Virus record (IMG/VR): IMGVR_UViG_3300045988_070658 | Source of the DNA: a virus | DNA: 42,032 nucleotides | Reading direction: 5' to 3' (one strand) | In this document: positions 3,095 to 29,568 of the stretch, in pieces | Layout: each line of letters opens with the position of its first letter | Position numbering within the stretch: the first letter of the stretch is position 1 | The notes under the pieces: generated by a model | The model's database searches: none | Told to the model about the DNA's origin: nothing | What the model saw: the letters and a program-made list of their open reading frames with translations, nothing else | Position numbers and translations under genes: made by a program

Positions 3095-4252
3095 TCAAGG
3101 ATTTTTGCTGACATAAGCGTCCAACAGAGCCGTATATTTTTGCGTTTCGTCCTCCCGCAGATGCTGGTAAATGCGCCGGGTGGTCATGATATCCGCATGA
3201 CCCAGAAGCTGCTGCGCCACCATATCCGGCACACCTGCGTAGAACAGATTTGTGGCGAACAGATGCCGGAACTGATGCGCCGTAACCAGTGGCCGGAACT
3301 CCTGACGCTGTACAGTGCGCTCCGGGCGAAGCGATGTGCCTGGTATCTTCGCTTCTCTGGTGTAGCTCTCGCATAAACCGATGTCCCGGCAGTACATCGT
3401 CCAGCGGCGGCTATACTGGCTCTGCGTAAGGGGCTTATCTGTGCCGGACAGCACATAGTCCTCCGGGCGGTGGGCAGCCTTCCCTGCTTCCAGCAGAGGA
3501 CGCAGCGGGCTGAGGATCGGGACAGAGCGGTACGCTTTCTTTGTTTTCAGCAGTTCCTTATACGGCTGGTTACGGCTCCACGGCATGGCCTGCACCGGCG
3601 TGATGACCCCGGCATCCAGATCTACGTCCTTCCACTGCAAGCCGTTTGCTTCGCCCATGCGCAGCCCGGTGTATTCAAAGAGCCACGCCCAGAATCCGCA
3701 GCCCTCGGGGTGGGCGTTGATGATCTCCCGCTGTTCCTCGGTAGGCTCTTCCCTGCCGCCCTCCGGCAGCCCGGCGGGGAGCTTTGCCAGCGGCACAGGA
3801 TTCCCGGTGCCGTGGTACTCCGCGCACCAATAGGAGAACACGCAGGACAGCACGCTCTTTGCGTTTTTGACCGAGTGCTTGCTCTTGCCCTGCGTTTTCA
3901 GAAGCTCCAGATACCCCCGCACCGCTTGCGCGTCGATATCCTGCATCGGGGTATCCCCGAAGTACGCGCGCATGGGCGGGAAGTTCTTGCAGTAGGCGTT
4001 CACCGTACCGCGCCGCACCGGAGAAGCATCGCTCTTGATATACTCCTCATACGCCACCGACACCACCCGAAACGTGTAGCGCTTTTCCTTCGGGGTCATG
4101 GATTCGATTTTGTAGTCCAGCACGGCCTGCTGGTATTTACGCTCCGCCTCGGCTTTGGATCTGCCATAAAAGACCCTGGGCTTTGGCAGTCCGGCGCTCC
4201 GGTGGATGCACACCCGGCCATCCGGGCGCTTTGTCTTTTTCGTTTCAGCCAT
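3095..4252 (-). CDS. int: Tyrosine recombinase / phage integrase
   Basis: C-terminal catalytic region ..HQFRHLFATNLF..LLGHADIMTTRRIYQHL (R..HxxR..Y signature). Start chosen at ATG 4252 (MAETKKTK) with GGAGGTG RBS at 4259-4265. The ORF-track extension to 4294 overlaps a plus-strand promoter. Confidence 0.9.
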   Translation of the reverse strand: MAETKKTKRPDGRVCIHRSAGLPKPRVFYGRSKAEAERKYQQAVLDYKIESMTPKEKRYTFRVVSVAYEEYIKSDASPVRRGTVNAYCKNFPPMRAYFGDTPMQDIDAQAVRGYLELLKTQGKSKHSVKNAKSVLSCVFSYWCAEYHGTGNPVPLAKLPAGLPEGGREEPTEEQREIINAHPEGCGFWAWLFEYTGLRMGEANGLQWKDVDLDAGVITPVQAMPWSRNQPYKELLKTKKAYRSVPILSPLRPLLEAGKAAHRPEDYVLSGTDKPLTQSQYSRRWTMYCRDIGLCESYTREAKIPGTSLRPERTVQRQEFRPLVTAHQFRHLFATNLFYAGVPDMVAQQLLGHADIMTTRRIYQHLREDETQKYTALLDAYVSKNP

Positions 4253-4277
4253 AACAACACCTCCAAAAGGGTACACT

Positions 4278-4306
4278 TTGACAAGCCCGCCCAAATGAGG
4301 TATAAT
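4278..4306 (+). promoter_or_regulatory. Perfect consensus sigma70-type promoter TTGACA-N17-TATAAT, divergent from int
   Basis: TTGACA 4278-4283, 17-nt spacer, TATAAT 4301-4306. Confidence 0.7.
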
Positions 4307-4665: not shown

Positions 4666-5508
4666 TCAGTAGACCTTCCGGCACTCGATCACCTTGCCCA
4701 GCACCCTGACCGGGACCTTTCGTGGGTCGTAGATCTGCGGCTGGTGGGCGGGGTTCAGGCTCCGGGGCGTCAAGATCACCAGTTCCCCTTCTCTGCGGAA
4801 GGTTTTCACCGTGGCTTCATCCCCATTGACCAGCACCACCGCGATCTCGCCGTTCTCCACCTCCGGCTGCTCCCGGACAAGGATCTGGTCGCCGTCATCC
4901 ATTCCGGCGGCGTTCATGCTATCGCCCCGGATATTCAGCCAGAAATAAACAGCGCCGTCCGTTTGCCGGATGGGGATGTACCCCTCGATATTCTCCTCGG
5001 CATACATGGGCAGTCCAGCCCGGACAGTACCCAGCAGCGGAGCGACCTGTGCCATAATGCACGGTGTAGCTCCCACTCGCTTCTTCCAGTCAGCGCCCTC
5101 GTGGTCCTCCACCACGGGGGCGTTTTTCTTTTTGTCCAGAGCATCCGCCTGCCGCATTTTGCAAGCTTCATCGGCCTGTTCCCGGTCGATCTCCTGCCAA
5201 GCCTGCCACGCCTTGGAGTAATCCCCACCACAGCTTTGCAGCACAGCGTCCCACCGGGGACCGTAGACATTGGCAAGCCGGGCGTCCGGGTCGCTGTCCC
5301 AATCGTAGGAATCATCGGTTTCGTCCAGAAGGTAGTCCAAGGACACCTCGAAATAATCAGCGAGCTTTTTCAGCTGGGCAGTCTGTGGTGTTCGCCCCAG
5401 ATTCTTCCAAGTGGACACCGTGCCCTTGCTGATACCGGCTTCTACCGCAACCGCCGAGGGACTTTTTCCTACGGACTTGCAGAGCTTGCGATACTTGTCA
5501 TAAAACAT
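4666..5508 (-). CDS. CI-like repressor (XRE HTH + LexA/S24 peptidase domain)
   Basis: N-terminal HTH ..SPSAVAVEAGISKGTVSTWKN.. and C-terminal S24 motifs GDSMNAAG .. GEIAVVLVNGDEATVKTF. A linker of about 100 aa separates them. Divergent from the cro-like gene. Confidence 0.85.
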   Translation of the reverse strand: MFYDKYRKLCKSVGKSPSAVAVEAGISKGTVSTWKNLGRTPQTAQLKKLADYFEVSLDYLLDETDDSYDWDSDPDARLANVYGPRWDAVLQSCGGDYSKAWQAWQEIDREQADEACKMRQADALDKKKNAPVVEDHEGADWKKRVGATPCIMAQVAPLLGTVRAGLPMYAEENIEGYIPIRQTDGAVYFWLNIRGDSMNAAGMDDGDQILVREQPEVENGEIAVVLVNGDEATVKTFRREGELVILTPRSLNPAHQPQIYDPRKVPVRVLGKVIECRKVY

Positions 5509-17469: not shown

Positions 17470-18144
17470 ATGGGTTTTTCAAATGAGCGGATGAGGACAG
17501 GACAGCTGGTCAACTGGTTTCTACTGGAGGGCTTGGAGCTGACCCCGGCGGGCAACCCCGTCACCAAACCGCTGCCGCTGCCCTTCGGCGTAGACCACCT
17601 CATCGGATTCAACGAGCTGCTGACCTGCAAGCACCCGGAGAATGCAGGCGTGCACTTCTTCCTCGATGACTACCAGTTCGAGCGATTCTGGCGACAGCCG
17701 CAGCGCTACCTCAACGCCCTGTCCCGGTTCCCGCTGGTGCTGGGGCCGGACTTCTCGCTTTACACCGACTTCCCTGCCCCGCTCCAGCGCTGGAATCACT
17801 ACCGGAACCAGCTGCTGACAGCATGGCTCCAGCAGCACGGAGTGCACGCCATCCCAGCAGCCAGCTGGTCGGACGAGGACAGCTTCCGCTGGTGTTTTGA
17901 CGGCATCAGTCCCGGTGGAGCCGTAGCCGTAAGCACCGTGGGCTGTCTTGTCCACAAGGACGCACAGGAGGGGCTGGCGCAGGGGCTGGAAGAGCTGATC
18001 CGACAGACCCGCCCGGCCGAACTGCTGGTCTATGGCAAGCTGCCGCAGCAGGCAGCAGTGCTCCTGCGCAGCAATGGTATTCCGTGGCAGGCATTCCCGC
18101 ATAGCATGGCGGCTCGCGTCAGAGCCAGAGAGGAGACGCTGTAA
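17470..18144 (+). CDS. DUF4417-family protein
   Basis: ..VHFFLDDYQFERFWRQPQRY...LGPDFSLYTDFP...RWNHYRNQLL..WLQQHGVHAIPAASW.. matches my recollection of the DUF4417 signature. Function unknown. Confidence 0.55.
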   Translation: MGFSNERMRTGQLVNWFLLEGLELTPAGNPVTKPLPLPFGVDHLIGFNELLTCKHPENAGVHFFLDDYQFERFWRQPQRYLNALSRFPLVLGPDFSLYTDFPAPLQRWNHYRNQLLTAWLQQHGVHAIPAASWSDEDSFRWCFDGISPGGAVAVSTVGCLVHKDAQEGLAQGLEELIRQTRPAELLVYGKLPQQAAVLLRSNGIPWQAFPHSMAARVRAREETL

Positions 18145-18956
18145 TGGGCGGCAGAGGAAGCAGTATGAAAGGCTCCCAAGGCATGGGAGGCGGCGCAGGA
18201 GCGCCCGCAGCAGCCGCACAGGCAATGCCCGCGATCCAAACAGCATCGGCAGCTCAGGCAGCGCCTCAGCAGGCAGGACCGCCCACCGGAGCGAACGGCT
18301 TCGGACACCTGACCCCGCAGCAGGTCTCCGCAATGGAGAGCGCTGCGCAGCGGCAGATGATGCGTGACCCGGCGCTGGCTGCAGGCGTGACCGACTACAT
18401 CAACCCCGTGATGCAGAGCAACGGCAAGGCACTGAGCCAGAACGCCAACTGGGCAGCCGCCAATAAGCTGCCATTGACCGCACGGCAGCAGGCCATGATG
18501 GACGCAGTGGACAAGCTGGCAAAGCCCATCGGGCAGGAGACCACCCTGTACCGCGCCGACCACGACGACTTCATCAAGCGGCTGGGTGTCAAGAACTACG
18601 GCAGTATGAGCGACAGCCAGCTGCGCAAGGCGCTGGTGGGCAAGACTTGGACGAACGACTGCCTGGAATCCACGGCCTACGATAGCCGTGACAACCCTTT
18701 CTGGCCGCAGCCGAACGGACACGGAACTGGCAAGCACGGTCAGGGCGGCATCCGCTCCGGCAACCGTGAGATCCTGATCCGGTATCACACCGCCAAGAGC
18801 GCCCGGGCGGCGTTCATCCAGCCCAGTCAGTCCGAAGCCGTTCTGGCAGTAGGCACCCACCACAAGATCACCGGTGTCCGGGCTACCCGCACTGGCCCTT
18901 CCCGCACCTATCTGACTGGCATGAAAGTGATTGAACTGGAAATTGAAGTGTGGTAA
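18144..18956 (+). CDS. ADP-ribosyltransferase-like protein 1 (R-S-E class, Gly-rich N-terminus MGGRGSS)
   Basis: ..DYINPV..(helical region)..TTLYRAD (Arg), about 40 aa, LESTAYDS (S-T-x), about 55 aa, IQPSQSEAVLAVG (Q-x-E). This order and spacing fit C3/VIP2-type ARTs. ATG overlaps the DUF4417 stop (TAATG). Confidence 0.6.
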   Translation: MGGRGSSMKGSQGMGGGAGAPAAAAQAMPAIQTASAAQAAPQQAGPPTGANGFGHLTPQQVSAMESAAQRQMMRDPALAAGVTDYINPVMQSNGKALSQNANWAAANKLPLTARQQAMMDAVDKLAKPIGQETTLYRADHDDFIKRLGVKNYGSMSDSQLRKALVGKTWTNDCLESTAYDSRDNPFWPQPNGHGTGKHGQGGIRSGNREILIRYHTAKSARAAFIQPSQSEAVLAVGTHHKITGVRATRTGPSRTYLTGMKVIELEIEVW

Positions 18957-18979
18957 AATCAATCTGGAGGTATCTCACT

Positions 18980-19210
18980 ATGGCAGCAAAGAAAGACCCT
19001 TATGCCAAGTTCCGCAAGCTCAAGCAGCACCCGGACTATGACAAAATGACCCCCGCAGAGCGCCGCTTATACGGCGAGTATCTGCAATCGGATGAGCAGA
19101 AGTTCCGCCCCCTCGACACCCCGGCTTCCCCCTACCCCTTCCCTAATCTGGGCATGGAGAAGCCCGCCAGCAAGAAGAAAACCACCAAGGCAAAACCCAA
19201 GAAAAAGTAA
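18980..19210 (+). CDS. Small protein with Lys-rich C-terminal tail, paralog 1
   Basis: ATG 18980 after GGAGG. Ends ..SPYPFPNLGMEKPASKKKTTKAKPKKK. Paralogous tail to 20100..20351. Confidence 0.6.
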   Translation: MAAKKDPYAKFRKLKQHPDYDKMTPAERRLYGEYLQSDEQKFRPLDTPASPYPFPNLGMEKPASKKKTTKAKPKKK

Positions 19211-19211
19211 G

Positions 19212-19246
19212 TCATAACGTTTTGCACCTGCTTTCCGTGTTACCCT
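19212..19246 (+). promoter_or_regulatory. Conserved promoter-like motif, site 2 (TCATAACGTTTT-N17-TACCCT, TGT extended -10)
   Basis: Starts 2 nt after the stop of 18980..19210. Lies 35 nt upstream of ART-like gene 2. Confidence 0.45.
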
Positions 19247-19280
19247 TGACCGAGAAATTCACGGCCAAGGGAGGATTCAC

Positions 19281-20087
19281 ATGGGAGGCAGAGGCGGAAG
19301 CATGGGCGGCAGCCACGGCATGGGTGGAGGCGGCAGCGCAGGCGGGGTGGCAAAGGCCGCCGCACCGGCAGCGCCCCAGACCCGCCAGCAGCAGCTGCTG
19401 GCACAGATCAAGGGCAACCCCACAACCCTGATGCAGATGAGCGATCAGGACGCGTTGGATACGGTCAAGGCGATTGCAGCACAGTCTATCGCAACGGATG
19501 GCACCCAGAATGACACCTTCTGTCAACGATGGTTGAATGCCACCGGACTGGCAAACGAGATGCCCGAGGTTCTGGATGATGTGGCTTTCGGCAAGGCCCG
19601 CCGCAAAGCAGGCGCGAACAAACTGTACCACAGCGATAAGTCCACCGACGGAACCTCGGCTTCTGCCGTAAAAACTCTGAAGCAATTGCAAACAGGCAGT
19701 ACGGCGTATGCCTCGTTTGGCACTCATGGAAGCGGTACTTATCTCGATACCAGTGCTGTCAGCAATGCGAGGTACTATGCAGGAGCAAATGGTTCTCAGG
19801 TCAAGCTATTCCTGAACAGAAATGCAAAGGTCGCAACCTTTTCTGAACTGTTTCAGGCGCAGACCGACTTCCAGAACAAGCACCCGAAAACATACAAGTA
19901 CCTCATGGGCAACCACACCGGTACGCAGTGGGGAGCCAGTGAATTAAAAACCATCTGGCTGACAAGTTCCGGGTACAATGTATACGATGCCGGGCAATAC
20001 AAGGTTGCATATAGCCGTAAAGCCTTAACCATCTGCAAGACAGTTAAGAGCAGACAGCAGGTTGTGCACGGGGGAATCGACTGGTAA
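19281..20087 (+). CDS. ADP-ribosyltransferase-like protein 2 (diverged paralog, MGGRGGS N-terminus)
   Basis: Same Gly-rich N-terminus and length as 18144..18956. NKLYHSD replaces TLYRAD (Arg to His), GSTAYAS is retained, and the Q-x-E region has degenerated to ..FSELF... Confidence 0.5.
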   Translation: MGGRGGSMGGSHGMGGGGSAGGVAKAAAPAAPQTRQQQLLAQIKGNPTTLMQMSDQDALDTVKAIAAQSIATDGTQNDTFCQRWLNATGLANEMPEVLDDVAFGKARRKAGANKLYHSDKSTDGTSASAVKTLKQLQTGSTAYASFGTHGSGTYLDTSAVSNARYYAGANGSQVKLFLNRNAKVATFSELFQAQTDFQNKHPKTYKYLMGNHTGTQWGASELKTIWLTSSGYNVYDAGQYKVAYSRKALTICKTVKSRQQVVHGGIDW

Positions 20088-20099
20088 AGGAGTTCAAGC

Positions 20100-20351
20100 A
20101 TGAAGAAGATTGAAAAGGCTACGCTGAATGCAGAAGCGCTGATTCAGGCCCGTATTGAACAGCTTAAGAAACAGGGCATGACCCCTAGAAACGCTAACGA
20201 GTGTGCCCCCATGGAATGGGATGCGCACACTGGCCGCATTGAAAAACGTGATCTTCCGGACAACTGGAAGGACCCCTATCCGGCTCTGGAAAAGGCTCTC
20301 AAAGCATCCAAGGCGAAGCCCAAGACCACCAAGGCGAAGGCCAAAAAGTAA
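20100..20351 (+). CDS. Small protein with Lys-rich C-terminal tail, paralog 2
   Basis: AAGGAG RBS. Ends ..DPYPALEKALKASKAKPKTTKAKAKK. Confidence 0.6.
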   Translation: MKKIEKATLNAEALIQARIEQLKKQGMTPRNANECAPMEWDAHTGRIEKRDLPDNWKDPYPALEKALKASKAKPKTTKAKAKK

Positions 20352-20352
20352 C

Positions 20353-20387
20353 TCATAACGTTTTTACCCTAGGCTCTCTGGTACAAT
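20353..20387 (+). promoter_or_regulatory. Conserved promoter-like motif, site 3 (TCATAACGTTTT-N17-TACAAT, TGG extended -10)
   Basis: Starts 2 nt after the stop of 20100..20351. Overlaps a hairpin (see terminator 20372-20408). Lies upstream of the ParB-methyltransferase gene. Confidence 0.45.
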
Positions 20388-20408
20388 TGCCAGAGAGCCT
20401 ATTTTATT
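20372..20408 (+). terminator. Hairpin plus T-rich tract (terminator-like) overlapping motif site 3
   Basis: GGCTCTCTGG (20372-20381) / CCAGAGAGCC (20390-20399), followed by TATTTTATT. Confidence 0.5.
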
Positions 20409-20423
20409 GCCCGGAGGGATTGC

Positions 20424-21689
20424 ATGGAGCGTGTGAAACACCAAATCGAGTACAAACGGCTGGACGAGATCCGCCCCTATGACAACAACCCCCGGCGCAA
20501 TGACGAGGCCGCCAAAGCCGTGGCCAACAGCATCCGGGAGTTTGGCTTCCAGTCCCCTATAATCGTGGACAGGGATGGCGTGATCATCGCCGGGCACACC
20601 CGGTACAAGGCCGCCCGGCGGCTGAAACTGCAGGAGGTGCCGGTCATCGTGGCGGCAGAGCTGGACCCGGAGAAGGTCAAGGCTCTGCGCATCGCAGACA
20701 ACTCCACCGGCGAGGTGGCACAGTGGGACTTGCAGCTTCTGGTGCAGGAGCTGACCGGCATCGACTATGACATGACCGACTTCGGCCTGAATCTCCAGAT
20801 CAAGATCGACGAGGAAGTCAAAGAGGACGACTTCACCGCAGAGCCCCCGGAGCAGCCCATCACCCAGCGGGGTGACATCTGGCTGCTGGGCGACCACCGG
20901 GTCATGTGCGGCGACAGCACCAGCCCGCAGGACGTGGAGCAGCTCATGGACGGCCAGCTGGCCGATCTGCTGCTCACCGACCCGCCCTATAACGTGAACT
21001 ATCAGGGCTCGAACGGCAAGAAGATCGAGAACGACAACATGGCAGAGAGCCAGTTCCGGCAGTTCCTGCTTCAGGCATACTGCCGGGCTTTCGATGCCTG
21101 CCGCACCGGGGCCAGCGCGTACATTTTCCACGCAGACACGGAGGGCGAAGCATTCCGGGCGATGTTCCGGGAGGCGGGCTGGGGGCTGCATGGGTGTCTG
21201 GTCTGGGTCAAGAACAGCCTTGTTCTCGGCCACAGCGACTACCAGTGGCAGCACGAGCCCTGCCTGTATGGCTGGAAGCCCGGCGCAAACCATTACTTCA
21301 TCAACGACCGCAGCCAGACCACTGTCATAGATGACGCAAAGCCCGAGGATCTGCGCAAGATGAAGAAGGACGAGCTGCTGGAATGGGCGGTCAAGGCGCA
21401 GGAGCTGCTGACCCAGAAACCCAGCAGCGTCATCCGCTGCGATAAGCCGCCCCGCAATGCAGAGCACCCCACCATGAAGCCAGTGGTGCTCTGCGGCAGG
21501 CTGATCAAAAACAGTTCCATGCCCGGGCAGGCCGTGCTGGATCTGTTCGGCGGCAGCGGTTCTACGCTGATTGCCTGCGAACAGCTGAGCCGGAAGTGCT
21601 ACACCATGGAGTACGACCCGCGCTATGTGGACGTGATCGTTAAACGCTGGGAGGACTTCACCGGCGAAAAAGCAGTCCGCCTGAAATAA
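20424..21689 (+). CDS. ParB-like nuclease domain fused to a DNA methyltransferase (N6-A/N4-C type)
   Basis: N-terminal ParB/Srx-like ..IRPYDNNPRRND...GFQSPIIVDRDGVIIAGHTRYKAA... MTase motif IV LLLTDPPYNV and motif I LDLFGGSGSTLIA. Confidence 0.85.
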   Translation: MERVKHQIEYKRLDEIRPYDNNPRRNDEAAKAVANSIREFGFQSPIIVDRDGVIIAGHTRYKAARRLKLQEVPVIVAAELDPEKVKALRIADNSTGEVAQWDLQLLVQELTGIDYDMTDFGLNLQIKIDEEVKEDDFTAEPPEQPITQRGDIWLLGDHRVMCGDSTSPQDVEQLMDGQLADLLLTDPPYNVNYQGSNGKKIENDNMAESQFRQFLLQAYCRAFDACRTGASAYIFHADTEGEAFRAMFREAGWGLHGCLVWVKNSLVLGHSDYQWQHEPCLYGWKPGANHYFINDRSQTTVIDDAKPEDLRKMKKDELLEWAVKAQELLTQKPSSVIRCDKPPRNAEHPTMKPVVLCGRLIKNSSMPGQAVLDLFGGSGSTLIACEQLSRKCYTMEYDPRYVDVIVKRWEDFTGEKAVRLK

Positions 21690-24990: not shown

Positions 24991-25171
24991 GGCGCTCCAA
25001 GCAGAACGCATGAACAAGGCCGCTGACCGGCTGGACTGGCTGATGGCGAACGCCCGCGTCCTGCGCAGCCCGGCACTATGGGAAAAGTACCACGAAGCGG
25101 TGCGCATGGCCGGGCTTCTGGGCTTCACGGTGACCCAGACAGGCGGCAAGCATGAGGTGCGCCCATGCTGA
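24977..25171 (+). CDS. Hypothetical protein (64 aa)
   Basis: Overlapping start and stop with its neighbours in the packaging operon. Confidence 0.45.
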   Translation: MATAKALQAERMNKAADRLDWLMANARVLRSPALWEKYHEAVRMAGLLGFTVTQTGGKHEVRPC

Positions 25172-26373
25172 CCCCGGACGAGGTCAACGGCTACGCCGGA
25201 CTGATGGCCGCTCCATGGGACGAGCTGGAGGAGCGCATCCTGCGGGACATGGTGCGCCGGATCATCAAAGCGGGCGGCATCACCTCCACCGCAGAGTGGC
25301 AGAGCTTCCGTGCGCAGGCGCTGGGCGCAAGCCGGGCATACCTGCTGCGGCAGATGCAGGCCATCGTGCAGGAGCTGAGCCCGCAGGAAGCTGTTGTATT
25401 TGCCCATGCAATGAAGCAGGCATACACCAAGGACGCAGCCGATGCAGCCGCAGCAGGCCGCGCTTTGCAGCCCTTGGGCGAGAGCGAAGAAGCGCAGCAG
25501 CTGTTGGAAAGCGGCTACCGACGCACCATGAACACCCTGTACAACCTGACCCAGACCCGCGCTGTGATGGGCAACCAGAACATGGTGGAGACCACCCAGC
25601 GGCAGCTGGCCTATTATCTGGATATGGCGCACATGGATGCAGCCAGCGGTGCCTTCAGCTCCGACGCCGCCGCCCGCCGGGCGCTCAACGAACTGGCAGC
25701 CAAGGGCGTGGGGGCTATCACCTACCCCAGCGGGCATACCGATACGCTGGACGTGGTGGTCCTGCGCGCCACGCGGACAGGCATCAACCAGACCGCCGGA
25801 GAGATCACCCGGTTTAATGCAGACCGGCTGGAGTGCGACCTGATGGAACTGGACGCCCATGTGGGTGCGCGCACCGGAGATGGCGGACAAAACCTGACCA
25901 ACCACAGCTGGTGGCAGGGACAGATCGTCAGCCGCAGCGGGCAGCACGGGTACCTGTCCCTGAGCGACATCGGCTACGGCGATGTGCGCGGCTTTATGGG
26001 TGCTAACTGCGCCCACAACTGGAGTATGTACTGGGAGGGTGCCAGCAAACGCAGCTACACTGCCGACCGGCTGGCTGCTATCAATGCTGCGACTGTCACC
26101 TATAACGGCAAAGAACTGGGACGATACAAAGCCACCCAGATGCAGCGTGCGCAGGAGCGCCGGATACGCGCCGACAAGCGGGCTTTTCTGGTGGCAAAGG
26201 AAAGTGGCCAAAAGGATGCCGAAAAGGCCGCAGCGGCAAAGCTGGCGACCTCCCGCGCAAAGATGAAGGACTTCCTCCACCAGACCGGGCTGCATCAGTA
26301 CCAGCTGCGGGAGAGCGTGCCCGGCTTTGGACGCAGTGAAGCAGCCAGCGCAGCAGCACAAGCGAGAAAATGA
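25165..26373 (+). CDS. Head morphogenesis / minor capsid protein (SPP1 gp7 / Mu F-like)
   Basis: Follows the portal gene. N-terminal ..PWDELEERILRDMVRRI.. and central ..HSWWQGQIV...GANCAHNW.. resemble the Phage_Mu_F / minor capsid 2 families. Confidence 0.7.
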   Translation: MLTPDEVNGYAGLMAAPWDELEERILRDMVRRIIKAGGITSTAEWQSFRAQALGASRAYLLRQMQAIVQELSPQEAVVFAHAMKQAYTKDAADAAAAGRALQPLGESEEAQQLLESGYRRTMNTLYNLTQTRAVMGNQNMVETTQRQLAYYLDMAHMDAASGAFSSDAAARRALNELAAKGVGAITYPSGHTDTLDVVVLRATRTGINQTAGEITRFNADRLECDLMELDAHVGARTGDGGQNLTNHSWWQGQIVSRSGQHGYLSLSDIGYGDVRGFMGANCAHNWSMYWEGASKRSYTADRLAAINAATVTYNGKELGRYKATQMQRAQERRIRADKRAFLVAKESGQKDAEKAAAAKLATSRAKMKDFLHQTGLHQYQLRESVPGFGRSEAASAAAQARK

Positions 26374-26380
26374 GCCGTGC

Positions 26381-26409
26381 TGGACTTCCTGAATGGGCTG
26401 TGCTATAAT
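26381..26409 (+). promoter_or_regulatory. Sigma70-type promoter with extended -10 (TGGACT-N17(..TGC)-TATAAT) for the lipoprotein moron
   Basis: TATAAT 26404-26409 preceded by TGC. -35 TGGACT at 26381-26386. Confidence 0.6.
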
Positions 26410-26437
26410 TCAGGCCAGAATAAAGGAGGTTTCATCT

Positions 26438-26947
26438 ATGAAAATCAAGAACTTTGTCCGGGCGGGTATTGTCCTGCTCGCGCTGGCATTCAGCTTGACG
26501 GCCTGCGGCGGCAGCGCTTCCAGCACTGCAAGCAGCGTAGCATCCAGTGCCCCAGTCAGTTCTGTAAGCGAGAGCGTTACACCGGAGACGGACTCTACCA
26601 GCGCAGAGTCCTCGCCCTTGGATGGTGTCAATTTCAGCGTGACTAAAGTTCGGAATGATGCCACTGGAAACTGGCGTATCTCCTGCATCGCCGAGAATCT
26701 CGACATGAGCGAGTATGCCTTGGACTACTACAAACAGTATTTCACGGGTGACAGCGAGATTCACTTCATCGTCAATTTCAACTACAACACCACCACAAAA
26801 ATCATGGTGATGGGCGGTGATCTGGACGTGACCGTTCAGGAGTACGTAGCCAAGGAAGAGCACGACGCAAAGGTGCTGGGCAGCGGAACTGTACTGGCCG
26901 AATATTTTGTAAACATCGAAACTGGCGAGATCGAGAAGGTCCGGTAA
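26438..26947 (+). CDS. Secreted lipoprotein (moron; possible superinfection exclusion)
   Basis: Signal peptide MKIKNFVRAGIVLLALAFSLTAC with lipobox L-T-A-C. AAGGAGG RBS. Own promoter and terminator. Confidence 0.75.
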   Translation: MKIKNFVRAGIVLLALAFSLTACGGSASSTASSVASSAPVSSVSESVTPETDSTSAESSPLDGVNFSVTKVRNDATGNWRISCIAENLDMSEYALDYYKQYFTGDSEIHFIVNFNYNTTTKIMVMGGDLDVTVQEYVAKEEHDAKVLGSGTVLAEYFVNIETGEIEKVR

Positions 26948-26956
26948 ACATACAGC

Positions 26957-26999
26957 GAAAACGCCCTGAAGGAATACACCTTCAGGGCGTTTTTTTTTT
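26957..26999. terminator. Bidirectional rho-independent terminator
   Basis: 12-bp stem 26961-26972 / 26979-26990, A-run on the 5' side and nine T on the 3' side. Sits between convergent genes. Confidence 0.85.
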
Positions 27000-27009
27000 A
27001 TTGAGTAAT

Positions 27010-27291
27010 TCAATTGAAGTGCTCCAGCAGTTCATCCACAAAAGCCTTTGCCGCCGGGGTCAGTGGGCGGGTGCACCAGCCACGGTCAAAGCAGGCAACC
27101 TCCTGCCAGTAGCGAACCTCACCGGGAGGTAGCTCAGCGATCCAGAGCTTTGAGACCCTGCCACCGTTAATACCGAACTGGCTGCCAGTTGCGTAAACCT
27201 TGGCTTCCCACCGGAACACGTGCCCGTTTCGCTCGGTCTGGCCTTCATGCCAGAGCTGACCGCCCATCTCTGCACGGAATCCACGCATCAC
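27010..27291 (-). CDS. Hypothetical protein (93 aa), last gene of the minus-strand operon
   Basis: Overlapping start and stop with the upstream gene. No family recognised. Confidence 0.55.
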   Translation of the reverse strand: MMRGFRAEMGGQLWHEGQTERNGHVFRWEAKVYATGSQFGINGGRVSKLWIAELPPGEVRYWQEVACFDRGWCTRPLTPAAKAFVDELLEHFN

Positions 27292-27554
27292 TGATCACCC
27301 CCGCCGTAGTCCACCACATAGCCGTTGTACACGAAGTTCTCTGCCGCCATGGCAGCGTCGAGGATCCGGTTTGCATACTCGGCAGCTTCCGCCGGGCTCT
27401 TGATCCCGAGAGAGCCCCACTGGACTCCCAGCTTCACCGGTGTGCCCTGCCGGGCAAAGTTGGTGTTGAAAATCCGAATGCAGTCCCACTCAGTGAACTG
27501 CGCCTGAAGCGCACCCAGCGCCTCGTTGTACACCTTCCAGTTGACCGTCTTCAT
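27288..27554 (-). CDS. Hypothetical protein (88 aa)
   Basis: GAGGAGGGG RBS on the minus strand. No family recognised. Confidence 0.55.
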   Translation of the reverse strand: MKTVNWKVYNEALGALQAQFTEWDCIRIFNTNFARQGTPVKLGVQWGSLGIKSPAEAAEYANRILDAAMAAENFVYNGYVVDYGGGDQ

Positions 27555-27567
27555 AGATTACCCCTCC

Positions 27568-27789
27568 TCAATTTGCCTTAATCAGAATGCCCTTGTCCAA
27601 TGCGAACCACACACCATCGTCCTTCTGCACGGTCTTGCAGCCCTGTGCCCGGAGCAGCTCCCGCATCTTCGACAGCTGGTGCTCAGTGCACTGCATCCAG
27701 AAGAACCCGGCATAGTTAAACCACTCGTTGCTCTGGATGTTCACAGTGCGGGCATTCTCAAAAATGCGGTTGAAGGTGCTGGTTTTCAT
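27568..27789 (-). CDS. Hypothetical protein (73 aa)
   Basis: AAGGAGGA RBS on the minus strand. No family recognised. Confidence 0.55.
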   Translation of the reverse strand: MKTSTFNRIFENARTVNIQSNEWFNYAGFFWMQCTEHQLSKMRELLRAQGCKTVQKDDGVWFALDKGILIKAN

Positions 27790-27809
27790 GATTTTGTCCT
27801 CCTTTTTGA

Positions 27810-28214
27810 TTACACATCAAAGCTGACCGAATGATATGCGAACCAGTGCCCACAGCGGCGGTGCAGCTTGTACCAGTTTGTGAAACGCTGACCGGAACAG
27901 TCATAGGGTGTGGGGCGAAACTCATAGTAGCGATTTGCCTGGAACCACTCGGCGGCATCGTCCTCATTGACCTTGTCCAGCTCGTCCGGGAGCCGCACCA
28001 GCTCAATGTAGCCATTAATGCCGTGCTCTTCGATAATGCGGCTGTCAGGTGCCGGGCGGTGGGTGAACTCCCGGATTTCGCGCTTGACATCGGCGATGTG
28101 CCTGTCCCGGCGAGCTACGTTCTCCACCGGAACAGTGACTTCTCTCAGGGTACGAACGAAACTGTAGGCTGCCCGCAGGCTTGCCATATCATTGATATTG
28201 AACACGATCACCAT
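27810..28214 (-). CDS. Hypothetical protein (134 aa)
   Basis: Start ATG 28214 (MVIVFNI..) overlaps the upstream stop. The ORF-track extension to 28355 overlaps the upstream gene. No family recognised. Confidence 0.5.
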   Translation of the reverse strand: MVIVFNINDMASLRAAYSFVRTLREVTVPVENVARRDRHIADVKREIREFTHRPAPDSRIIEEHGINGYIELVRLPDELDKVNEDDAAEWFQANRYYEFRPTPYDCSGQRFTNWYKLHRRCGHWFAYHSVSFDV

Positions 28215-28438
28215 TCCCCCTTCATGGCTGCCTGGGCGATTGCCCGCTCTTCCTTCTCCTGATCCAGCGCCTGTGCAAAAGCATCCAGCGCGCTGGCCCT
28301 CGTGATCGGACCGAACTCCTTCACAAAGTAGGCGAAGGTGCGCTCGTCCCAGCATTCGACATAGCCATCGCCGCCCTTATCGTAGTTCTCGCGGGCCAGC
28401 TTCATGAACTGGTCGTAGGTCAATGCACGTTCTTTCAT
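28208..28438 (-). CDS. Hypothetical protein (76 aa)
   Basis: AAGGAGGACTGAACC ATG context on the minus strand. Confidence 0.55.
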   Translation of the reverse strand: MKERALTYDQFMKLARENYDKGGDGYVECWDERTFAYFVKEFGPITRASALDAFAQALDQEKEERAIAQAAMKGEW

Positions 28439-28441
28439 GGT

Positions 28442-28693
28442 TCAGTCCTCCTTGTTCGTGTACTCGTCGGTGTCCCGGCTGGATTCGCCCATCAGAAACA
28501 CCCGGTGCTTGCCCTTGGCATCCCGTACCCAGTCGCCACCAAGAGCGGTGAGGGCGAAGATCATCCCTTGGTACTGACCCTCGGCGCACAGCCGGGTCGG
28601 CTCCGGCAGGTCCTCCCGGTGCATGACGCACCACTGAGAGTCCATATTGAACGCCAGCGTCCCCAGATGGCCGCGCAGTTCCTTCTTCTTCAT
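28442..28693 (-). CDS. Hypothetical protein (83 aa)
   Basis: AAGGAGGACTAAACC ATG context on the minus strand. Confidence 0.55.
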   Translation of the reverse strand: MKKKELRGHLGTLAFNMDSQWCVMHREDLPEPTRLCAEGQYQGMIFALTALGGDWVRDAKGKHRVFLMGESSRDTDEYTNKED

Positions 28694-28706
28694 GGTTTAG
28701 TCCTCC

Positions 28707-28865
28707 TTAGTTGCCAGCGTAGGCCAGAATGCCTACGAAGTTATCCTGATCGACCATACGGAGTGCGAAGCGCTCCAGCGCCGCCTGGGTTTTGAACACC
28801 CGACGCTTAGTCACGATCTTGTCGTGGCTGCCGACCACCTGATACACAATCTCCAATTTAACCAT
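28707..28865 (-). CDS. Hypothetical protein (52 aa, below the ORF-track cutoff), first gene of the operon
   Basis: My own translation: MVKLEIVYQVVGSHDKIVTKRRVFKTQAALERFALRMVDQDNFVGILAYAGN. GGAGGA RBS 8 nt upstream of the ATG. Confidence 0.45.
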   Translation of the reverse strand: MVKLEIVYQVVGSHDKIVTKRRVFKTQAALERFALRMVDQDNFVGILAYAGN

Positions 28866-28915
28866 TTTTCGTTTTCCTCCGTTATTTTTTATCCCGGGAC
28901 TCTTCCGGTAGCCGT

Positions 28916-28944
28916 ATATTACCTCTGCGTAGAAACAAAGTCAA
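28916..28944 (-). promoter_or_regulatory. Sigma70-type promoter TTGACT-N17-TAATAT driving the seven-gene minus-strand operon
   Basis: The reverse complement of 28939-28944 is TTGACT and that of 28916-28921 is TAATAT, with a 17-nt spacer. Confidence 0.6.
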
Positions 28945-28980
28945 GTTGTTTTTGATTTGTTTTTCAATTTCTTTTAGTTG

Positions 28981-29009
28981 TTGACTTTTGCCCTGGCAAG
29001 TCGTATCCT
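28981..29009 (+). promoter_or_regulatory. Sigma70-type promoter TTGACT-N17-TATCCT for the divergent HTH gene
   Basis: TTGACT 28981-28986, 17-nt spacer, TATCCT 29004-29009. About 25 nt upstream of ATG 29034. Confidence 0.5.
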
Positions 29010-29033
29010 TGTGGCAGAAAGGAGCGATTTAAA

Positions 29034-29261
29034 ATGACCACATCCTCAAGGATCAAAGCCCTGTTAGAGCTGACCAGCACCGAACAGACAGCCTTCGCCG
29101 CAGCGTTCGGCATGACCACCCCGCAGGCCATGAATAACAAGCTGCGGCGGGACAGCTGGTCGGCAAAAGACCTCGCCAAAGCCGCCACGATCTGCGGTGC
29201 GCAGCTGGCATTCCTTCTGCCGGACGGCTCCCGGCTCATCATCAGCCCGGAAGAGGAATAA
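29034..29261 (+). CDS. XRE/Cro-type HTH regulator (75 aa), divergent from the small-gene operon
   Basis: ..TSTEQTAFAAAFGMTTPQAMNNKLRR.. is an HTH. AAGGAG RBS. Own promoter and terminator. Confidence 0.65.
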   Translation: MTTSSRIKALLELTSTEQTAFAAAFGMTTPQAMNNKLRRDSWSAKDLAKAATICGAQLAFLLPDGSRLIISPEEE

Positions 29262-29276
29262 CCGCTACACGGCAAA

Positions 29277-29324
29277 GAAGCCCCGCCCCACGGAGAACGA
29301 GCCTCCCGGGGCGGGGCTTCTTTT
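29277..29324 (+). terminator. Strong rho-independent terminator
   Basis: 13-bp GC-rich stem GAAGCCCCGCCCC (29277-29289) / GGGGCGGGGCTTC (29308-29320), followed by TTTT. Confidence 0.8.
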
Positions 29325-29337
29325 GCAACATACGAAA

Positions 29338-29568
29338 GCAACAAAAATTTAGTTGATTGCAACATTTATCAACATACAAACCCGTCTCGGTTTGTATGCA
29401 GCCAAAAACCTAGGCGTGATGCGGCTTTTTGCCACCTAACATACAGAACATACGAAATCTCTTATAAAGACCCTGAACAGAAGAAAATAAGAATACACGC
29501 GTATAGGAATAGCCTTATACCCTTCGCGTGAGGGATTTATAGGGTTTTCGTATGCTTTGTATGCTCGG
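29338..29568 (+). repeat. Structured AT-rich repeat element, copy C (231 nt)
   Basis: Collinear with copy A. Hairpin 1 at 29373-29398. Long hairpin 29438-29565. An extra iteron lies at about 29327. Confidence 0.85.

Follow-up and report, generated by a model that had tools for sequence, protein, structure and literature searches.

Two predicted ADP-ribosyltransferases of different clades, each followed by a small lysine-tailed protein, form a conserved four-gene module in a temperate gut phage

Why would a phage carry two consecutive gene pairs, each consisting of a gene for a large protein with the marks of an ADP-ribosyltransferase (ART) and a gene for a small basic protein with a lysine-rich tail? 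The question is raised by the IMG/VR record IMGVR_UViG_3300045988_070658, a stretch of 42,032 nt that we analyzed whole and call the window; all position numbers are those of the whole window. We refer to the four genes and their products, in order, as L1, S1, L2, and S2 (Table 1). An earlier note on this DNA had read them as a single ART-plus-partner cassette duplicated in tandem, the second copy having decayed through replacement of Arg by His and loss of a Q-x-E motif, a reading to which we now give next to no credence. In our view L1 and L2 are probably ARTs of two different clades. The explanation that we favor, at a probability of roughly 0.4, is that both are self-toxic phage effectors, and that each comes with a cognate partner that neutralizes it and bears a nucleic-acid-anchoring tail.

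Much of what the earlier note saw is correct. All four open reading frames (ORFs) lie where it placed them, on the plus strand, each with a Shine-Dalgarno site; the two large proteins do have a Gly-rich N-terminus in common (MGGRGSSMKGSQGMGGG and MGGRGGSMGGSHGMGGG), and both small proteins end in PYP...KTTKAK(P/A)KK. Within the 42-kb window the MGGRG leader is found in two ORFs, L1 and L2 alone, and the Lys-rich tail in S1 and S2 alone. Because no other ORFs of the window carry either, the pattern is not a by-product of composition. Architecture, leader, and tail are thus alike in both pairs, and it is this that speaks for tandem duplication. The bodies of the genes, however, do not agree with a duplicated cassette. 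By BLASTP, neither L1 and L2 (E value [E] 0.19) nor S1 and S2 (E 12) are similar. When the two families were compared using hhalign, residues 1-47 alone aligned (probability 96.6), with no homology detectable beyond them, and with a broader L2 profile the alignment shrank to residues 1-15. DNA repeats are present at the ends of the units alone, namely in the leader (18144-18195 vs 19281-19332; 52 nt, 75% identity), in the Lys tail (19178-19203 vs 20322-20347; 26 nt, 81% identity), and across the stop codon and 3' flank (19202-19255 vs 20343-20396; 54 nt, 72% identity). In addition, L2 has a large family of its own (289 matches, E ≤1e-3) in which the H/R-Y-Y-D motifs of the PARP clade are conserved; purifying selection acts on L2, which also comes with a partner family of its own. 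To the depth that sequence and profile comparison can reach, whole-gene duplication is rejected by BLASTP and hhalign.

What, then, are the two enzymes? For L1, the R-S-E layout that had been proposed is borne out: TLYRAD, ESTAY, and QSEAVL are all present, and R137, S176/T177, Q229, and E231 are invariant or nearly so in the family. Homologues fall into 122 clusters, with E down to 1e-173; one is named ADP-ribosyltransferase in nr, and some carry the Pfam domain PF03496 (ADPrib_exo_Tox). This domain is matched in 12 of 22 aligned homologues (best E 8.4e-12), and the homologues that carry it match L1 at E 1e-15 to 1e-63. The Arg of TLYRAD, R137, is invariant in the 22 aligned relatives and lies in a predicted strand (133-139). 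Similarly, S176 and T177 of S176-T177-A178 (in ESTAY; strand 175-178) and Q229 and E231 of Q229-S-E231 (strand 231-234 in the AlphaFold2 model) are each kept in at least 90% of relatives. The AlphaFold2 model of L1 has a predicted local distance difference test (pLDDT) score of 78, with residues 1-42 below 50. The ART fold that the earlier note had assumed was recovered when this model was searched with Foldseek, which pointed to a C3/Vip2-like fold: there were 141 PDB matches at E ≤1e-3, the best 50 of which were all ARTs of the C3/Vip2 class. The top match was C3bot1 (E 8e-11, target-normalised template modeling [TM] score 0.64), and CDTa, iota Ia, Vip2, Certhrax, and Plx2a were also matched, the values for C3bot1, CDTa, iota, and Vip2 being about 1e-8 to 1e-10.

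Sequence and model together indicate that L1 is a C3/Vip2-type R-S-E ART with an intact R-S-[Q-x-E] set, and place it as a probable new member of the C3/Vip2/Alt R-S-E group. Its likeness to the clostridial C3 exoenzymes, Vip2, and iota/CDTa lies in the fold and in the R / S-T-x / Q-x-E layout, and its single-domain size is that of C3. Identity to clostridial C3 is just 13-17%, though, and L1 has no signal peptide and has an added leader and linker. Like C3bot and the Alt and Mod enzymes of T4, L1 is phage-encoded. T4 modA and modB are also two adjacent ART genes, but in the module the two ARTs are not paralogues, the second being of another clade. One IMG/VR contig (locus L043, 5001-6246) carries a deletion variant in which L1, cut at residue 203, runs straight into L2 from about residue 53. 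It lacks S1 as well as the C-terminus of L1 and the leader of L2, and may have arisen by recombination or by an error of assembly.

L2 is not the decayed R-S-E enzyme that it had been taken for, the mapping of STAY, of Arg to His, and of Q-x-E being coincidental. The related suggestion that this copy might be inactive or retargeted fails as far as it treats L2 as a duplicate of L1, from which it differs in ART clade. Altered catalysis could nonetheless apply, because Ser245 replaces the usual acidic residue. The close family of L2 comprises 98 clusters, none of them Pfam-annotated. The profile search that yielded the 289 relatives covered 1.84 billion representatives, and a 77-member alignment was used for a census of its columns. 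Y154 is present in 77 of 77 members, G150 and G152 in 76, Y166 in 75, and R246 in 73. Position 117 is Arg in 39 and His in 35, the window copy having His (KLYHSD), and position 245 is Asp in 54, Asn in 14, Ser in 5, and Thr in 4, the window copy having Ser. In two alignments, with PARP12 and PARP3, family positions 117, 154, and 166 fall on the PARP H-Y-Y motif, and the G-x-G-x-Y-F-A...Y of the L2 family aligns with the G-K-G-x-Y-F-A...Y of PARP.

Other searches with L2 lead in the same direction. Among the PDB sequences, the 60 matches of the L2 profile that were listed, out of 79, are all PARPs or tankyrases. When family members were compared with Pfam one by one, the only recurrent matches, all sub-threshold, were PARP (33/77, best 1e-4) and ART-PolyVal (12/77, best 7e-4); the window L2 itself has neither a PARP (PF00644) nor an ART-PolyVal (PF18760) Pfam match. 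In the AlphaFold2 model (pLDDT 84.7), H117 lies in strand 115-119 and Y154 in strand 153-156. Foldseek matches in the PDB were all weak, and were enriched in ART folds: PARP13 (E 0.034), a RES NADase toxin, PARP12, TNKS2, Tpt1, and diphtheria toxin. In BFVD, the matches were uncharacterised siphovirus proteins (E down to 1e-10), a "capsid maturation protease and MuF-like fusion" (3.8e-4), and ART-PolyVal proteins (0.04-0.4). A further match, to a pre-ejectosome protein of cyanophage A4, is distrusted (TM 0.30, root-mean-square deviation 21), and the paper on that structure describes helical bundles, a transglycosylase, and an M23 peptidase, but no ART.

The ARTs of polyvalent proteins are defined by His in strand 1, Tyr in strand 2, and Asp in strand 5 (Iyer et al., PMC5512222). 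Judged by its sequence family and its model, L2 appears to be an ART of this PARP/ART-PolyVal (H-Y-D) clade, on a divergent branch. It shares with PARP, ART-PolyVal, and Tox-ART-HYD2 the strand-1 His and the G-x-G-x-Y-F-A...Y of strand 2 and the next helix. Most of its relatives also have the Asp before the last strand, and polyvalent and MuF proteins of phages contain the domain. On the other hand, its Pfam matches are sub-threshold, half of the family has Arg for His, and the window copy has Ser for Asp; L2 is also a stand-alone protein of ~265 aa with a leader, and not a domain of a giant protein. The family thus fits H-Y-D, whereas the window copy reads H117-Y154-S245, without the acidic residue. 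Altered chemistry is likelier than decay, because the H-Y-S subclade is well conserved and has a partner subtype of its own. With L2 as a member, the H-Y-D ART family is widened by stand-alone phage proteins and by [H/R]-Y-[D/N/S] variants.

The L2 domain is also found at the C-terminus of proteins of ~430-560 aa, and within a 1715-aa polyvalent protein that combines MuF, AAA, and Zeta-toxin domains. In bacterial chromosomal islands, the two L2-domain proteins of ~520-540 aa that were examined, with N-terminal parts of unassigned kind, lie beside a 269-aa GNAT protein (P0249 at locus L069, P0254 at loci L070/L071), and the first of these islands carries a Barstar-family protein too. In another protein, P0230 (543 aa), the N-terminus is a coiled coil that recalls LXG, and 106-aa ORFs come next. 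These loci resemble those of polymorphic toxins and share the ART domain of L2. Because it is found in toxin-island proteins and in a MuF polyvalent protein, the L2 domain behaves as a toxin module.

What do the small proteins have in common? Each enzyme is followed by a basic protein of 35-90 aa, made up of an enzyme-specific N-terminal part and a common Lys-rich, H1-like C-terminus. S1, with an isoelectric point (pI) of 10.0, is of a subtype, S1a, with the core EQKFRPLDTPxxxxPFPNLGMEKP, and had no match in any library searched. The core of the S2a subtype is MEWDAHTG...WKDPYxxLxK; S2b is homologous to S2a, and both subtypes have the motif WKDPY and an invariant W40, H43, G45, and P53. Of the 159 matches in the S2 family, the 120 listed are hypothetical phage proteins of 51-93 aa, and the homologue search found small hypothetical Caudoviricetes proteins alone, with no annotation and no other context. 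In 118 of these 120 clusters the Lys tail is kept (≥40% Lys or Arg in the last 15 residues). Lys and Arg make up 45% of the last 20 residues in both S1 and S2, and the tail is also present in clades with enzymes that are only ~20-35% identical. From these comparisons the tail appears to be conserved and under selection. All four proteins of the module have a pI of 9.6-10.0, and the cores of the small ones of 7.9-9.0.

The tails of histone H1, Hc1, AlgP, and actinobacterial HupB resemble this one in being Lys/Ala/Pro/Thr-rich, low-complexity, basic, and ~16-25 residues long, a likeness of composition alone; unlike H1-type tails, the tail of the small proteins sits on variable, enzyme-specific mini-domains. 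The internal proteins of T4 are also small and basic and are made alongside the injected ART Alt, and here too the likeness is compositional, with no homology implied. Among candidates for natural fusions of a large to a small protein none was convincing, P0117 being a frameshifted read-through.

Is the module peculiar to this phage? The earlier note had made its proposal depend on the two gene types occurring together elsewhere, and a survey of IMG/VR, ENA, and Logan found this to be so in many phage genomes (~60 loci). The layout across loci is DUF4417, L1, S1, L2, S2, a terminator, sometimes a ParB-methylase, then terminase and portal. It is kept in a clade that is just 30-35% identical (L001, L046-L063), overall down to ~20-35%, and in more distant phages reached via the L2 profile (L145 and L146, in the latter of which S1 is an uncalled 34-aa ORF). 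The S1 subtype follows the L1 subtype in 21/21 and 7/7 cases. Likewise, S2b goes with H-Y-D forms of L2 (13/13) and S2a with H-Y-S forms (16/16), and all four combinations of pair 1 and pair 2 subtypes are seen. This co-variation, in which large and small partners are never parted whereas pairs 1 and 2 reassort, suggests that the two members of a pair are cognate and are the unit of exchange. At one distant locus (L148, 3159-5801), an L2-type protein stands downstream of DUF4417 with a DUF2513 protein on one side and a radical SAM enzyme of 467 aa on the other.

The module also has clear borders. Upstream, the stop codon of the DUF4417 gene overlaps the start codon of L1 (TAATG at 18142-18146). 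The terminator downstream of S2 has a fold of -27.7 kcal/mol (z -4.4), with 0/200 shuffles equally stable, and a hairpin and T-run are present 3' of S2 in every clade (L001, L047, L063, L145), although their sequences are unrelated. Because this conserved terminator follows S2, the module should be the last part of the replication-side transcription unit and not of the packaging operon; it adjoins the terminase genes, yet the terminator intervenes. The sequence of the S1-L2 spacer is conserved across loci, and an imperfect inverted repeat in it, CCCTTGACCG..CGGCCAAGGG, abuts the Shine-Dalgarno site of L2. A hairpin at this site was considered and rejected, its fold being no stabler than those of shuffles (z -0.6).

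Both enzymes are built as a Gly/Arg/Ser leader of ~17 aa, a disordered linker, and a catalytic domain. Leaders match better within a genome than between genomes (0.63 vs 0.46 identity, permutation p<1e-4), and the tails, like the leaders, match within the genome. There are five leader dialects: MGGRGSSM.., MSQGGASY.., MGGRGSNSG.., and two that are within-genome pairs, MGNTGQSSSN../MGDTGQGTSN.. and MAKGGRGGRR../MAKGNRGGQR... Gene conversion between the repeated DNA ends, co-adaptation to a single receptor, or the two together could account for the match within genomes. A reading of MGGRGS as an N-myristoylation-like signal was dropped, because the MSQGG.. and MAKGG.. dialects lack the N-terminal Gly pattern. 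In search of further cargo, IMG/VR was scanned with the leader peptide, which found the same phage group alone, and a scan with the 3' DNA box AARAARTAANTCRTAACGNTT found that group and chance matches alone; since both scans gave the same group, there is no evidence of hypervariable cargo.

Two distant members of the L2 family, P0281 and P0243, start with MRLDLQFFGGRGAS and MRINLRLFGGRGGG, in which an L27/Prp-type MxLxLQFF motif stands directly before GGRG. This Firmicute cleavage motif has been described for capsid, scaffold, and tail proteins (PMC5744158), among them the capsid and scaffold proteins of phage 80alpha. Cleavage at it would expose the same N-terminus as removal of Met does in MGGRG proteins. 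A cleavage motif of this type is absent from the present phage.

How might the four proteins work together? In the explanation that we favor, both ARTs would act during infection as phage effectors that ADP-ribosylate macromolecules of the host bacterium. The unchecked enzymes would harm the cell that produces them. Each small protein would bind its own enzyme through its variable part and hold it in check, as Bsi does Bxa. The invariant Lys tail probably holds the partner, and hence the complex, on nucleic acid, and the common leader and common tail may be address labels read by one shared receptor. We rank an effector with a neutralizing partner first because there is an experimentally tested precedent: Bxa, an ART from a gut prophage, is self-toxic unless blocked by Bsi, a small protein encoded beside it (PMC11699363).

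The Bxa/Bsi pair of Bacteroides stercoris and the MuF toxins (Jamet 2017, Alexei 2024) offer a prophage ART effector in a gut bacterium, as here. MuF toxins also have a constant N-terminal part, an exchangeable C-terminal toxin domain, and a small cognate ORF directly downstream. A small ORF after the toxin in a temperate phage is the MuF paradigm, and S1 and S2, conserved across loci, take its place in the module. It is important to note the differences as well. L1 and L2 lack a MuF domain (no Pfam MuF match), and their constant part is a disordered leader of ~17 aa. The module lies outside the head-morphogenesis operon, with a terminator between, and has no ADP-ribosylhydrolase partner. Its partners are basic and have a common Lys tail, and there are two fixed slots for two ART clades.

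Several observations weigh against this explanation. The window L1 itself has no Pfam match at E<1, and L2, in which S245 stands where an acid is missing, might not be a transferase. The small proteins are basic (pI ~10) and go down to 34-39 aa, which is unusual for immunity proteins that block an active site, and an immunity-only role does not explain the strict conservation of the Lys tail. L148, which lacks L1, has no small ORF at all, and elsewhere L2-domain toxins are followed by unrelated ORFs without the tail. The linkage of large to small genes could stem in part from mere adjacency. Finally, the module is a fixed core feature with two enzyme types, and not a hypervariable accessory locus. 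Because the small proteins are so basic and tiny, the tail so strictly conserved, and the module a fixed part of the core genome, two rival explanations, of packaged effectors and of tethered holoenzymes, stay alive. Of the roles that the earlier note had proposed (a takeover enzyme with a targeting subunit, a toxin with a neutralizer, and a modifier of DNA or of a nucleoid protein), all are still live alternatives on the sequence evidence.

According to the former, the leader would put both ARTs into the procapsid, from where they would be injected with the DNA in the manner of T4 Alt, MuF, or polyvalent-like proteins, the small proteins being co-packaged internal proteins or chaperones on the DNA. 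Phage ARTs that are encoded beside terminase and portal genes, or that are part of MuF or PolyVal proteins, are predicted to be packaged in the head and injected (PMC9503650, PMC5512222). The fold of L2 occurs in MuF fusions, in PolyVal proteins, and weakly in the cyanophage pre-ejectosome protein, although this last match is a poor one (TM 0.30, rmsd 21). A leader, a long flexible linker, and an enzyme resemble tethered cargo; two relatives have the L27/Prp-type motif before GGRG; and in this phage Phage_min_cap2 is a protein of its own and the portal is of the SPP1 type. As with a head-packaged ART of the Alt type, the module adjoins terminase genes and a shared N-terminal leader exists, but the conserved terminator stands between the module and the packaging and head genes, and L1 is translationally coupled to DUF4417. 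Nor does this phage have a MuF fusion, a prohead protease, or a cleavage motif. DNA-bound proteins are, moreover, not expected to pass through the portal when a terminase drives the DNA. We consider delivery in the virion unlikely, if still the strongest of the competitors. Next in rank, and likewise doubtful, is the idea that the small proteins are targeting subunits of two-subunit ARTs, which an H1-like tail and an RGG-like leader would place on DNA or RNA in order to modify nucleoid, RNA polymerase, or ribosome proteins, or nucleic acid itself, in mid-infection. A basic pI (9.6-10.0) is common to all four proteins, the tail is present in 118/120 listed S2 clusters, and the module, as predicted from the terminator layout, is co-transcribed with replication genes. 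Its neighbors act on DNA (SNF2, DUF4417, which is often ParB-fused, and the ParB-methylase), and there is a functional analogy to the adjacent modA and modB of T4. The L1 motif is Q-x-E and not E-x-E, and Q-x-E accompanies non-arginine acceptors: Asn in C3 and guanine in the pierisin/Scabin group. However, homology to ARTs known to target DNA or RNA is lacking, and DarT, pierisin, and Scabin are absent from the best 50 of the 141 PDB matches of L1. Such strict co-variation of subtypes is compatible with targeting subunits, though not needed for them.

A more radical version, which strikes us as improbable, makes the enzymes nucleic-acid-directed machines: the H1-like partner would clamp each ART on DNA or RNA, and the target would be the nucleic acid itself, or else Lys/Ser/Thr-rich tails and nucleoid proteins. 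Modification of nucleic acid could serve as DNA hypermodification, as anti-restriction, or as a host shut-off mark, beside a ParB-methylase that marks DNA too. With tails or nucleoid proteins as targets, the module would be a bacterial-virus analogue of histone-tail ADP-ribosylation, and under either version the genome-matched leaders and tails would read the polymer. More improbable again is a module that serves the lysogen through classical toxin-antitoxin action, abortive infection, or superinfection exclusion. The phage is temperate, with an integrase and a CI repressor, and has toxin-type domains that are each followed by a small ORF. In DarT-DarG, ParT-ParS, and RES-Xre, an ART-fold toxin has a small neutralizing or DNA-binding partner, and RES is among the structural matches of L2, if a weak one. 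In the module, by contrast, the partner lies 3' of the toxin, and macro, helix-turn-helix, Xre, and other known antitoxin domains were not found in library scans. The module lacks a promoter of its own and lies inside a lytic operon, with L1 overlapping the lytic gene upstream, and none of the four proteins has a PADLOC match at E ≤1; it is for these reasons that we regard such a role as unlikely. The position of the module is, in addition, fixed in the core genome across deep divergence. We see very little chance that L1 and L2 are C3-like exotoxins directed at the human gut epithelium and freed by phage lysis, as has been described for Bxa, the gut-prophage ART that acts on epithelial cells (PMC11699363). 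The best structural matches of L1 are indeed the Rho-modifying C3 exoenzymes, yet L1 is just 13-17% identical to C3. Neither a signal peptide nor a secretion domain is present, the leader being Gly-rich and not hydrophobic, and without an export signal a eukaryote-directed exotoxin is unlikely. A core phage feature with DNA-related neighbors does not suggest one either.

How new is this arrangement? The enzymes are of known kinds, but in the literature searched we found no description of the conserved four-gene arrangement. Nor did we find there any account of two ART clades in fixed pairs that lack a MuF or polyvalent carrier, of a genome-matched mini-leader, of a common H1-like tail on otherwise unrelated cognate partners, or of a module that is always coupled to DUF4417 and set off from the packaging genes by a terminator. 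The interest of the module lies in what its leader and tail do. Known cases involve a single accessory toxin, whereas here two ARTs of different clades are a core feature. Knowing what reads the leader and tail, be it the capsid, the DNA, or the ribosome, would reveal the way in which small phages direct their effectors when they have neither a MuF nor a polyvalent carrier, and strictly cognate, swappable pairs would be a ready specificity system. Because one S2 cluster alone is found on 846 contigs, the module is common in gut metagenomes; Faecalibacterium, to which close relatives of L2 belong (see below), is among the most abundant human gut commensals.

Table 1. Positions of the module, its parts, and the adjoining genes in the window (aa, amino acids; SD, Shine-Dalgarno site)
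Feature	Position	Strand	Remarks
DUF4417 gene	17470..18144	+	Pfam PF14386, E 3.6e-51; directly 5' of module
L1 ORF	18144-18956	+	270 aa; SD GAGGAG
L1 leader, aa 1-17 (MGGRGSSMKGSQGMGGG)	18144..18194	+	Gly/Arg/Ser-rich; common to L2
L1 linker, aa 18-55	18195..18308	+	Ala/Pro/Gln-rich, predicted disordered; alignment indels, low pLDDT
L1 catalytic domain, predicted C3/Vip2-type R-S-E ADP-ribosyltransferase	18309..18956	+	Homologues with PF03496; AlphaFold2 and Foldseek
L1 predicted catalytic codons	R137 18552-18554; S176-T177 18669-18674; Q229-S-E231 18828-18836	+	
S1 ORF, basic partner of L1, subtype S1a	18980-19210	+	76 aa; SD GGAGG 9 nt upstream
S1 Lys tail KPASKKKTTKAKPKKK	19160-19207	+	
S1-L2 spacer	19211..19280	+	First ~45 nt are a repeat of the DNA 3' of S2
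L2 ORF	19281-20087	+	268 aa; SD GGGAGG
L2 leader, aa 1-17 (MGGRGGSMGGSHGMGGG)	19281..19331	+	pLDDT <50 for residues 1-24
L2 domain, predicted divergent H-Y-[D/E] ART (PARP / ART-PolyVal / Tox-ART-HYD2-like)	19377..20087	+	
L2 key codons	H117 19629-19631; Y154 19740-19742; S245-R246 20013-20018	+	
S2 ORF, basic partner of L2, subtype S2a	20100-20351	+	83 aa; SD AGGAG
S2 Lys tail KASKAKPKTTKAKAKK	20301-20348	+	
Predicted intrinsic terminator	20370..20408	+	14-bp stem, 4-nt loop, T-run; terminator scan
ParB_N - N6/N4 DNA methyltransferase fusion, outside module	20424..21689	+	Pfam PF02195 and PF01555; terminase genes then follow

What kind of phage is this? The gene order in the window is integrase, CI/S24 repressor, DUF2800, PolA, VapE, SNF2, DUF4417, and the module, followed on its 3' side by the ParB_N-N6/N4 methylase, TerS, TerL, the SPP1-type portal, Phage_min_cap2 (a separate gene, 25165-26373), and scaffold and capsid genes. 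Since an integrase (3095-4294) and a CI-like helix-turn-helix/S24 repressor (4666-5508) are present, both on the minus strand, the window comes from a temperate phage or prophage. It is an SPP1-like temperate siphophage of the type found in Faecalibacterium and related gut Clostridia. A genome scan with the narrow L2 profile found close relatives at three loci, two in Faecalibacterium (metagenome-assembled genomes) and one in Eubacterium sp. CAG:38. The GenBank phage collection gave no match, either by blastn with the region or by tblastn with L1, L2, and two distant L2 relatives, and Pfam, PHROGs, NCBIfam, PADLOC, and PDB-sequence searches with all four proteins returned nothing significant.

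The DUF4417 gene may be a fifth component of the module. It is directly upstream of L1 in L001, L005, L145, and L146 and is present in L148 too, and its family, PHROG 940, is annotated as "nuclease." In L146 (1972-3168), DUF4417 is fused to a ParB_N domain, and ParB-DUF4417 is given as a phage-enriched fusion in a 2025 preprint.

Farther downstream, between the minor capsid and scaffold genes of the head module, the window has an island (26393-29500) of lower GC content (0.55) and negative GC skew. It holds a lipoprotein-like ORF (26393-26947; an internal Met, then the lipobox KIKNF..LALAFSLTAC) as well as opposite-strand ORFs without Pfam matches, and is probably a moron or accessory cargo.

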